This document shows, one piece after another, positions 22,755-25,700 of a DNA stretch of 64,000 bases. Numbering within the stretch: the stretch's first letter is position 1; the number at the start of each line of letters is the position of its first letter. Source of the stretch: Candidatus Rhabdochlamydia sp. (GTDB lineage: Bacteria > Chlamydiota > Chlamydiia > Chlamydiales > Rhabdochlamydiaceae); the NCBI GenBank assembly GCA_051648645.1, contig JBOFFP010000001.1, positions 352,001 through 416,000 of the forward strand, given 5' to 3'. Under the pieces are notes generated by a model, which was not told the DNA's origin, did no database searches, and was given only the letters and a program-made list of their open reading frames with translations. The position numbers and the translations under genes were made by a program.

Positions 22755-25700
22755 TTATTTTGCATTAACGAGTTCTCCTTTATTCTGATTTTGTAATAAA
22801 AAAGTAGAAATCGCATGAGAAGCATAAACATAAGCTTTTTGTTCCAATAAAAAATCTATTCCAAGAATTCGGTTGCAGTTCATATGCATAAGGCTCATCA
22901 AAATATTTTCTAGATGGTTAGATTCTTGTAATGCAATAACATAAGAGCTTTGCTGTAGTTCTCTTTTTTGAAAGATCCCGGAAAAAAGATTTGATTCTTC
23001 GTTAAAAGCAGAAGAAGGCTTGTGATTTAGGATATTGATTACTGAAACCATTTTAGATTTCCATTCTCTAAAACCTTCTAAAAGTTCTTTTTTTAAATTC
23101 ATTTGATTAAATAAGGCCTTTTGTTGTTCTAAAGACAGACCAAAGCTTTTAAGGAGATGAATAAGGCTTAAAGAAGCTACGATATAATTGGGAAACTGTG
23201 TTTTTTTTGATAGGAGAAGATCTAAAAGAGAAAAGGTGCATTCTGAATCAGCTTGAAAAAAAGTTTCTGCTAAATCAATCAGAGATTCTCCTCCATATCG
23301 CTCTATTTCTCTATCGTAAGTGCCTATTTGAACTTCTCTAATCCAATTTTTTTGCACAAGATTTTCTGTCCAAAGATGGAATGTGCTCAATAGAGGGCTA
23401 AGATCTTTTAACTTCTTGAGTTTACATCTAAAGCGAACATGTGAGGCACCTGCTTCTTTGAATCGAATAAAAAACCATTTTTCTATTATATTTTTTATGT
23501 CTTGAGTAAAAAGACTTAAACAAGAGGTTAAAAATCTCTCTTCATTGTTATTAGGAAGATAGATTTTAGCATAAAACCATTCTCCCCCAGGAGGTTTTTT
23601 TCTGATGGCAGGATCTATCGAAGAAAGCACAGCAGGGATGTTTAAAGGAGTAAAGTGTTTTTTGTTTTTAAGGAAAGGAACTACAAATTCGCAACGATGC
23701 GTACCTAAGTTACTTTTAACTAACTCTTTTTCTCCCTTCTTTTCTATTAAATTAACAGGGGTTTTGGGATCTAGCTTTAGCCTGATGGCTATTTCTTTCA
23801 AGTGAAAATGCTTAGTTCGATCGAGAAGAATTTGATGATCCGCCCAAGCCATTAAAAGAAAGCGGGGAAGATTCCATGCATTAGCCCAAATTTCTATTTT
23901 TTGAATAAGGATCTCTAAGCTATCTTCTGCTTTTGCTTGAATAAGAGAGAGTGTTAATCGCCATTTAGCTGCAAAAAGAATCGTTTTTTTGTAGCGAATA
24001 GAAGGCAAAAAAGAAAAGCTTGCTGCTTTACCCCAAGAAAAAAAAGAAAAGGGCCGAAAACTATCTCTGGAAACATCTCGTAAAAATCGAACAAGGGTGG
24101 GGGCTATGGAAAGATTCAAGACATTGTTTGCAAAAACCATGAGTTTCTGTTTTTCTTTTTTTGTAGCCAAATAAAGATGATGGGGAGTGGCTCCCACAAC
24201 AATATCTTCAAGGTCAAGAGAATGCTCTTGAGATCTACTATAACCTAGATCAATGGCCAAAGGCCTCAAAAGAGAATGAGAAGCAACATTTGCATTTCGA
24301 GGAACGGAAGGGAAATAAGAAATTTCAGCATAGATAGCCATTGAATCTGCATTTTCTTCGTCTTGTAGAAAGGATCTTACTTTTTCTTTTTCTTGTTTTC
24401 CAAAGAAATCAATGAATCTACCCAAAGTAGCACAACCATTTGTGTTATCAGAACCTCCATGAAGAAGAAGCAGAAAATCTTCTTTATTTTCTATAGAAGG
24501 CTGAGGAATAACTCCAAAAAAGACATCAAAAGAAGAAGGGGCTTCTTTTGGATCTAAATTTAGATCAAATTTTTTGATCAAGTCTTCTGTAAGCACAATT
24601 TCTGTTCGGTGCTCTCGAATACACCGAGCCCACTCTTCCATTAACCAAGCTTCGTAGGAAAGTTCTTTTTGTTTTTCTTTTGACGTGATGAGATATTGCT
24701 CAGGGGTGCCTAATCCGATAGTTTCATCCAATAATTCCAGAACGGGAACAAGGCTAGATGTTCCATATTTATCTAAAAATTTTTCATGATAGGAGCGTAA
24801 AGCAGAGACTCCCTTATTCAGGGCAGATATTTTCCAAAGGGCTTCTATCCCTTCGCTAAGTGCATAACTGATATCTGAATGAAGGGAAATCTTTTCAGAA
24901 GAAACAGCATCTACTTGAAGCATCGAAGAAGAAGGATTAGTCATTGATTCTTGGAGAATTTTTAGAGAATTTTCTCCTTTTCCAACTGCAGTTGCTTGGT
25001 AATTTTGTAGAAGAGTAAGGATGGTTTGAAATTTTACTAGTAAAGCAGAAGAAGGAAGAATTGTTTTCAAGTAGTCAATAGAATCGATAAAAGAGGATTC
25101 TGTTAGAAGAGTAGGAAGCAGAGTCGGATAAAGAATTTCCTGTTGAATAAGGGAGTAAATGACCTGGGAGACTTTCTCAGGGTTTAAAGCAGGAAGATGG
25201 GATAAAACTTGTTTAAGTAGTTGCTCCTGAGTAATGACTTCTTTAGCTAGAAAAAGAATGAGACTTACTAAGGAATTTGCACGAATAGACACTTGTTTTT
25301 TTTCTGTTTTTCTTGAAAAAGGGAGAATGATTCTTCCCATGGATTCATAGAGAAAAGGATTTCTTTTTACAGGGAAAAAGGAAAGAACAGAAGGATCTAA
25401 GAGGATAGAATCAAGCTCATTTAGAAGCCATTGCATATCTGGTCGAGCTTGTTTTTTTATAAAAGTTAAATCAAATTGAGCTACAGGCGTTTGACTCCAT
25501 GCCCCCATTGAAACAAAAGAAAAAAGACCAAAAGGAGTAGCACGAGTAGTCATTCTTAAAACATATTTAAAAAGACTAGAAATAGCTTTTTCTTTTTTTT
25601 TGCATCTTTCTTCTTATTAGAAAGAAGTTGCAGGATCGTTTCATAAAGAGAAAAAGAAGCAATTGCAATAGCTTCTCGAAGCTCTGACCTTGTTTGAAAT

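Follow-up and report, generated by a model that had tools for sequence, protein, structure and literature searches.

Frameshifts in the poly(A) tracts of Buchnera and Blochmannia genes are reportedly rescued by transcriptional slippage, as Tamas et al. are said to have described in 2008. Insertion sequences of the IS3 family use a -1 frameshift of the A_AAA_AAG type, the shift site of Escherichia coli dnaX is preceded by a Shine-Dalgarno-like element and closely followed by a strong stem-loop, and mxiE of Shigella flexneri undergoes programmed transcriptional realignment at a T9 run. The literature further describes -1 programmed ribosomal frameshifting at A_AAA_AAG in E. coli dnaX (PMC3711429), programmed transcriptional realignment in Thermus thermophilus dnaX, which has an A9 run (PMC3711429, PMC5009743), and, in Citrobacter rodentium, a tssM1 gene in which transcriptional frameshifting at an A11 run lets expression continue past the premature stop behind it (Gueguen et al. 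2014, PMC4256274); the study of Tamas et al. is cited as reference 244 in Atkins et al. 2016 (PMC5009743). Here we analyzed a 64,000-nucleotide stretch of Candidatus Rhabdochlamydia sp. (assembly GCA_051648645.1, contig JBOFFP010000001.1, positions 352,001 to 416,000 of the forward strand), hereafter the window, in which lanB, the gene of a class I lanthipeptide dehydratase, is broken at a run of nine A residues (25593..25601, minus strand). With moderate confidence, we favor the view that this break is a real, recent and strain-specific frameshift, not a programmed one, in which a young and hypermutable tract of an accessory gene cluster has contracted, and that the resulting allele is probably leaky.

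The locus resembles the Buchnera and Blochmannia genes in that, in the AT-rich, reduced genome of a host-associated bacterium, an otherwise intact gene is broken by an indel of a single base within some 9-10 consecutive A, and polymerase slippage would be expected to restore the frame in some transcripts. Unlike them, lanB encodes an accessory chlamydial lanthipeptide enzyme, has intact alleles in near-identical strains and is known from DNA alone. With tssM1 it shares a poly(A) run at the break of a large gene whose full-length protein would need added A residues in the mRNA. However, both length variants of TssM1 are required and the arrangement is also found in Yersinia, whereas the lanB break is not conserved and its short product has no evident role.

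The two pieces of lanB lie on the minus strand. The 5' piece (25556..25828, 90 codons) begins at a TTG codon at position 25828, six nucleotides after a GGAGG ribosome-binding site (25835..25839), and ends at a TAA codon (25556-25558); its start residue is the same as in the intact homologues (MLHPREF). The 3' piece is a stop-free -1 frame of 952 codons (22755..25613) in which the ATG at 25553 is the first canonical start codon. On the minus strand the junction reads ...GAT GCA AAA AAA AAG AAA AAG CTA TTT CTA G..., the A9 run being followed by a G (25592), five A (25587-25591) and a second G (25586). Alignment with homologues shows that this run is the sole place where the two frames overlap with homologue support on either side. 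It contains most of an A_AAA_AAG heptamer (25592..25598), which the codon phase of both frames places in the correct phase of the upstream (0) frame. A class I lanthipeptide dehydratase is expected in a single uninterrupted frame, as in the homologues; lanB is broken at the A9 run, and a LanB of 1024 aa results if the frame shifts by -1 or a single base is added there. The first-pass annotation of the window had proposed this anatomy, namely that one added base or a -1 slip joins the two frames and that no further stop follows, and direct reading of the sequence bears it out. The joined length of 1024 aa that it gave is matched exactly by two intact homologues of about 99% identity.

Domain assignments agree with this anatomy. 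The 5' piece covers positions 2-38 of the Pfam Lant_dehydr_N profile (PF04738; 16.4 bits, below the cut-off when taken alone), while the 3' piece covers positions 33-647 of the same profile (436.8 bits, E 1.5e-130) and positions 1-254 of the 255 of Lant_dehydr_C (PF14028; 165.1 bits). This is one LanB gene, broken near Lant_dehydr_N profile position 33-38. Similarity to the structure 9G04 extends over the full length (E 3e-97). Like NisB and the other class I LanB structures (PDB 4WD9, 6M7Y, 5EHK, 9G04), it has both Pfam domains and is accompanied by lanC and lanA genes; unlike them, it has an interrupted frame, a chlamydial host and six precursors with a common YDLDIELK-type leader. The 3' frame aligns to NisB from residue 68, and a phmmer alignment with 4WD9 chain A places Y80, R83, R87 and T89 of NisB at Y17, R20, R24 and T26 of that frame. 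In NisB, the Y80F substitution abolished dehydration and R83A crippled it (PMC4341554). The equivalents of Y80 and R83 lie upstream of the ATG at 25553. Because a product restarted there would lack both residues it would be inactive, and active enzyme could therefore be made only through restoration of the frame.

We compared lanB with its homologues. The closest in the protein database is P0001 (1024 aa, 99% identical to the window LanB); P0121 (1024 aa) and P0124 (767 aa) belong to the same 90%-identity protein cluster and are about 98-99% identical to the window LanB. The nearest named homologues are labelled Candidatus Rhabdochlamydia sp. All three cluster members cross the site in a single frame, with DAKKKEKAISS within ...SNKKKDAKKKEKAISSLFKYVLRM.... 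Both lanB pieces align end to end with intact P0001 and P0121 and also with P0124, which is unbroken across the site, and the 5' piece is identical to residues 2-79 of P0001. Outside the cluster, the site reads KKREK in relatives at 90% and 88% identity (P0002 and P0003) and LKDTEK in P0004 (55% identity). The two-frame arrangement is thus found in none of the three other cluster members, and P0002, P0003 and P0004 are also single-frame. The A run is probably interrupted in the KKREK relatives, and the long run seems to be young and species-specific, as judged from the protein sequences.

Private residues, defined as those shared with none of the other sequences that cover the position (window, P0001, P0121 and P0124, the pieces being treated separately), number 5 in the window LanB, 4 in P0001 and 4 in P0121. 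The window LanB has thus not changed in excess, its gene has no further stop and the cluster is otherwise undamaged; the break is either very recent or not real.

For the in-frame ancestral tract, A10 is the simplest reading; the one alternative that differs by a single base, A9 with GG behind it, would encode the same peptide. An exact-pattern scan of metagenome contigs for the DNA of intact lanB alleles, with 8-12 bases at the run, gave no match, and a P0001-guided protein scan found no relative. A scan of genome contigs returned one locus only, in a Bacteroidota metagenome-assembled genome (MAG), at 24% identity. No intact close orthologue was found in the 8 other genomes of the genus, in which the best intact matches are paralogues of 29-37% identity. 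In a sister species (G005:C28:31780-35555), C-terminal remnants of lanB are left, 62-69% identical, in two frames and with several stops; neither lanC nor lanA was found beside them in the 3.5 kb examined. By these comparisons the lanthipeptide cluster is accessory, patchy in the genus, lost before and decayed in the sister species.

P0124 was considered as a second independent break. It is in frame at the A run and ends near residue 756 with 9 unrelated residues. This odd end (LPN|LSFGFSR) is encoded in neither of the alternative frames of the window DNA, and no conclusion was drawn from it; a contig end, a rearrangement or an insertion could each account for it.

The main competing explanation is that the base was lost during sequencing or assembly, the true sequence being A10 and lanB being intact as in the conspecific assemblies. 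A shortfall of one base in a long homopolymer is the classic undercall, the three other cluster sequences are all in frame at the site and both gene and cluster are otherwise undamaged. We examined how the assembly behaves at homopolymers. The window's assembly (G000) comprises 1.67 Mb in 12 contigs, with 35.5% GC and 93% completeness, and contains 1087 A/T runs of 8, 262 of 9 and 35 of 10-12. All runs of at least 5 were screened for sites at which one long open frame gives way to another. Such switches were seen at 5/262 runs of nine, 1/35 runs of at least 10 and 14/1087 runs of eight, compared with 491 of 66,792 random positions. The 30 candidate sites at runs of at least 8 were all inspected: 27 are ordinary gene junctions and 3 are split genes, namely lanB, rsmH and one PDDEXK_2 copy. 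All three lie at 9-base runs, so that 3 of the 297 runs of at least 9 coincide with a split gene, while none was found among the 1087 runs of 8. A looser screen (at least 30 codons on each side) gave 10 frame pairs at 9 sites, at which the same three split genes were the only recognizable ones.

With at least 50 open codons required on each side, 18 of the 35 runs of at least 10 and 118 of the 262 runs of 9 are in frame. As an independent check, 329 open reading frames (ORFs) from 400 kb of a relative (G002) were used as tblastn queries against G000; 302 were matched, at a median identity of 84%, and 286 of these matched in a single frame over at least 90% of their length. Three other queries (q279, q317 and q321) gave adjacent high-scoring pairs in different frames, which we read as end or weak-similarity effects rather than clear breaks. 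The assembly is clean at homopolymers and the genome is not riddled with pseudogenes. Moreover, 10 of the 24 contig ends lie inside PDDEXK_2 repeat copies of about 1 kb, which suggests a short-read assembly, in which consensus errors at A10 would be uncommon. On the other side, if the lanB run is in truth A10, it would be 1 of 19 coding runs of at least 10 to read short, a plausible rate for a low-coverage assembly. The 18 long runs in frame, the absence of split genes at runs of 8 and the single-frame matches to the relative nevertheless speak against a technical error, which we hold to be possible but rather doubtful. Either way, the lanB break is a rare single event.

A separate observation concerns the run lengths themselves. 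The number of A runs roughly halves with each added base up to 8 (1208 A7, 561 A8), then drops about 4-fold to length 9 (130) and about 10-fold to length 10 (12), and T runs behave alike. Such counts would be expected if selection acts against runs of more than 9, slippage beginning at that length.

The PDDEXK_2 copies show that tracts of this class do change. The PD-(D/E)XK 'transposase' family (PF12784) has 17 matches in the genome, on contigs C3, C5, C8 and C9 (for example C8:67352-67360; L017, L082-L093). At one site, five paralogues carry A7, A8, A8, A8 and A9, and the A7 and A9 copies are frameshifted; since tract length varies from A7 to A9 at this single site, its change is a live mutational mode in this genome. 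We favor a mutation in lanB over an assembly error because this class of tract is hypermutable and the gene is dispensable.

The same variability could serve an adaptive switch, in which a contingency tract toggles lanthipeptide production within populations, A10 being on and A9 off. Chlamydia pneumoniae pmp genes are switched in this manner by poly-G tracts. The lanB homopolymer sits early in the coding region, tract length also varies in the PDDEXK_2 family, and one out-of-frame and three in-frame sequences are found among near-identical strains (about 99%), the latter three known as proteins only. However, the tract is apparently absent in the relatives at 88-90% identity that have KKREK, and so it has not been maintained for long; the 18 other coding runs of at least 10 give no sign of switching, and one variant allele is indistinguishable from a single loss event. 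Phase variation at lanB is thus quite improbable.

We then considered whether the run is a selected recoding signal, with A9/A_AAA_AAG setting a ratio between the 90-aa product and full-length LanB. The heptamer conforms to X_XXY_YYZ in the 0 frame, and lanB has the same heptamer, the same phase and the same single tRNA-Lys(UUU) as E. coli dnaX. Among the 35 tRNAs found in the genome, the only anticodon for lysine is UUU, which would favor slipping on AAG by analogy with E. coli. A hairpin follows at 25547..25578 on the minus strand, and the lineage maintains one such site, in rsmH. However, A_AAA_AAG occurs in frame 310 times in the 1398 ORFs of at least 100 aa of this genome; with so many occurrences the heptamer alone is not diagnostic, and it is the frame break that is unusual. 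In contrast to dnaX, no Shine-Dalgarno-like element (GGAGG or AGGA) is present in the 19 nt upstream of the heptamer, and the AU-rich hairpin is weak and distant: a stimulatory structure would be stable and lie 5-9 nt downstream, but here 13 nt separate the hairpin from A_AAA_AAG and 7 nt separate it from the second AAG. Its folding energy is -8.8 kcal/mol (z -2.27, a stability reached by 6 of 200 shuffles), and in longer contexts the region gives z values of -1.72 and -0.79. The direction also differs, since the dnaX shift shortens the product and that of lanB would lengthen it. The A9 run is long enough for transcriptional realignment but is not conserved: the site is crossed in one frame by the three other cluster members and by every more distant homologue that was inspected, and the 90-aa product has no evident function. 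Because the break is unconserved, the heptamer common, the Shine-Dalgarno-like element missing and the hairpin weak, a selected signal is unlikely, and we regard programmed recoding at lanB as very improbable indeed.

These results bear on the interpretations offered in the first-pass annotation. A conserved or programmed form of the switch that it proposed is not supported, given the single-frame cluster members, the KKREK relatives, the missing Shine-Dalgarno-like element and the weak, distant hairpin. The comparison of orthologs that it called for places the break in the window only, near-identical strains being whole, and thereby also argues against a conserved switch. Recent pseudogenization and sequencing error, its two other options, both stay on the list of candidates; a recent frameshift is favored, and a dead gene is less likely given that the allele is probably leaky.

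How the A9 allele may still yield enzyme can be outlined. One base would have been lost at the poly(A) tract relative to the intact 1024-aa alleles of near-identical strains. RNA polymerase could then add an extra A on the 9-base run and so produce a fraction of full-length LanB, or ribosomes could slip -1 at A_AAA_AAG, read by the single tRNA-Lys(UUU), with the same outcome. Either route would give DAKKKEKAISS or a one-residue variant of it. The A9 allele is therefore probably not null but leaky. Bacterial RNA polymerase is known to slip on runs of 9 A or T (PMC5009743, PMC3711429), and the second of these sources, by Antonov et al. 2013, sets thresholds of n>7 for An and n>8 for Tn and reports, for E. 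coli reporters, 40% frameshifting with a 9-A cassette, 10% with 7 A and 63% with 11 A (PMC3711429). T. thermophilus dnaX and S. flexneri mxiE likewise indicate that nine A or T suffice for slippage, but those sites are conserved whereas the lanB A9 is a variant of a single assembly. The lineage constitutively expresses rsmH through a 9-base run that lacks one base; if the same slippage acts at lanB, the A9 allele would supply LanB at a reduced dose, and A9 and A10 might then act as a heritable dosage or on/off setting of a six-precursor pathway in an obligate intracellular chlamydia, a suggestion that is unlikely to hold.

Read-through of the lanB run gains indirect support, by analogy, from a conserved break at a T9 run in the same genome, and this is the strongest argument for it. 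The rsmH gene, encoding the 16S rRNA m4C1402 methyltransferase (G000:C8:5484-6400, plus strand), is split at T9 (C8:5789-5797) in the context GAT GGT TTT TTT TTG ACC TAG, where a -1 shift or one added base gives ...VDGFFFDLGVSS.... The Pfam MraW profile is divided between the two frames, the first matching positions 2-97 and the second positions 94-309. All nine genomes of the genus have GGTTTTTTTTTGA and an identical frame break, although their flanking sequences carry substitutions. Across the order, where the run was located by alignment position and not by its motif, the T9 break is present in at least 15 of the 81 sampled genomes, spread over 9 of the sampled families. Of 27 loci from named MAGs, 20 have it as well; these MAGs overlap in part with the genus and order genomes and include complete chromosomes and entries labelled Rhabdochlamydiaceae and Simkaniaceae. 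Eight of the 22 order-level loci displayed are single-frame, and in one of these GGA + T9 is in frame. The rsmH loci are L016, L018-L033, L035-L036, L038-L039, L042, L055-L072, L074, L080 and L114.

Within the genus, dN/dS is 0.15 upstream of the break (100 codons) and 0.06 downstream of it (204 codons), with dS of 0.35-0.40. As both halves are under purifying selection, rsmH is functional. A search for conserved RNA structure at the T9 run gave a consensus of -2.15 kcal/mol and 0 covarying pairs, so that a stimulatory hairpin is unsupported, and in some lineages the frame overlap is reduced to about 5 codons centred on the run. This short, run-centred overlap and the absence of conserved structure fit transcriptional slippage or unstimulated slipping on U_UUU_UUU. 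The site is closely similar to those of T. thermophilus dnaX and S. flexneri mxiE and looks like a candidate undescribed recoding site. Its conservation indicates that this lineage reads through a one-base-short 9-base run well enough to keep a housekeeping gene. The T9 run may thus serve as a natural yardstick, within the lineage, for read-through of 9-base runs, and we consider it a more interesting result than lanB itself. A literature search by title and abstract, with subscription journals outside its scope, returned no match for an rsmH or mraW frameshift in chlamydiae, and the words 'chlamydia', 'rsmH' and 'mraW' are all absent from the examined part of the Atkins 2016 review (PMC5009743). 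RsmH modifies the decoding centre at the P site (PMC13602947); a feedback loop acting through this centre is conceivable but pure speculation.

Several points weigh against a real and leaky contraction of the lanB tract. The A9 allele is known from a single assembly and the evidence is the assembled consensus, in which a run of A10 may have been undercalled by one base. The A10 ancestor is deduced from protein and not from DNA. The rsmH comparison sets a T run beside an A run and provides no quantitative estimate for lanB, and the 40% figure belongs to E. coli reporter cassettes with other sequence contexts. Finally, in a genome that is 93% complete a tRNA-Lys(CUU) could be unassembled. In annotation, lanB should not be labelled a programmed frameshift, nor should it be recorded as a dead pseudogene from the assembly alone.

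The broken gene belongs to an otherwise intact cluster, with the LanC cyclase and the Ser/Thr/Cys-rich precursors that accompany a LanB. All further genes of the cluster are on the minus strand. The lanthionine cyclase gene lanC (26379..27689) is intact and encodes 436 aa (Pfam LANC_like, E 9.7e-61). A first lanA-like precursor of 51 aa (26086..26241), with a ...YDLDIDLK... leader and the C-terminal core SILCTGRSDCICY, lies between lanC and lanB. Five others, recognized by the leader pattern, encode 60 aa (27976..28158), 55 aa (28395..28562) and 55 aa (28914..29081), followed by one whose start is placed at the MQISQ methionine inside a 76-aa ORF, by analogy with the other copies (29305..29463), and one starting at MQSFHG inside an 82-aa ORF (29626..29784). 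The latter has a weak match to Pfam Gallidermin (E 7.6e-4, below the cut-off). The six ORFs share the leader MQISQ..DLYDLDIELK..HEN and have C-termini rich in Cys, Ser and Thr; they are the only matches to the leader pattern in the whole genome. Each gene is preceded by a conserved GGAGG region, whereas the cores differ among copies. lanC and all six lanA genes are undamaged.

The genome carries a second lanB on contig C12, which is intact, encodes 1026 aa (33% identical) and adjoins a lanC-like gene; no precursors of the above type were found near this pair. In a full-text literature search, with subscription journals outside its scope, no paper on class I lanthipeptide clusters of chlamydiae was found. 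A six-precursor class I cluster together with a second lanB-lanC pair in a Rhabdochlamydia genome thus appears to be undescribed for chlamydiae.

Two other genes of the window were noted. Beside the lanthipeptide cluster, positions 32140-33576 (minus strand) encode a protein with HAMP and adenylate/guanylate cyclase domains. The 577-aa protein encoded at positions 34521-36254 (plus strand) contains a ubiquitin C-terminal hydrolase (UCH) domain of eukaryotic type (E 1.5e-32).

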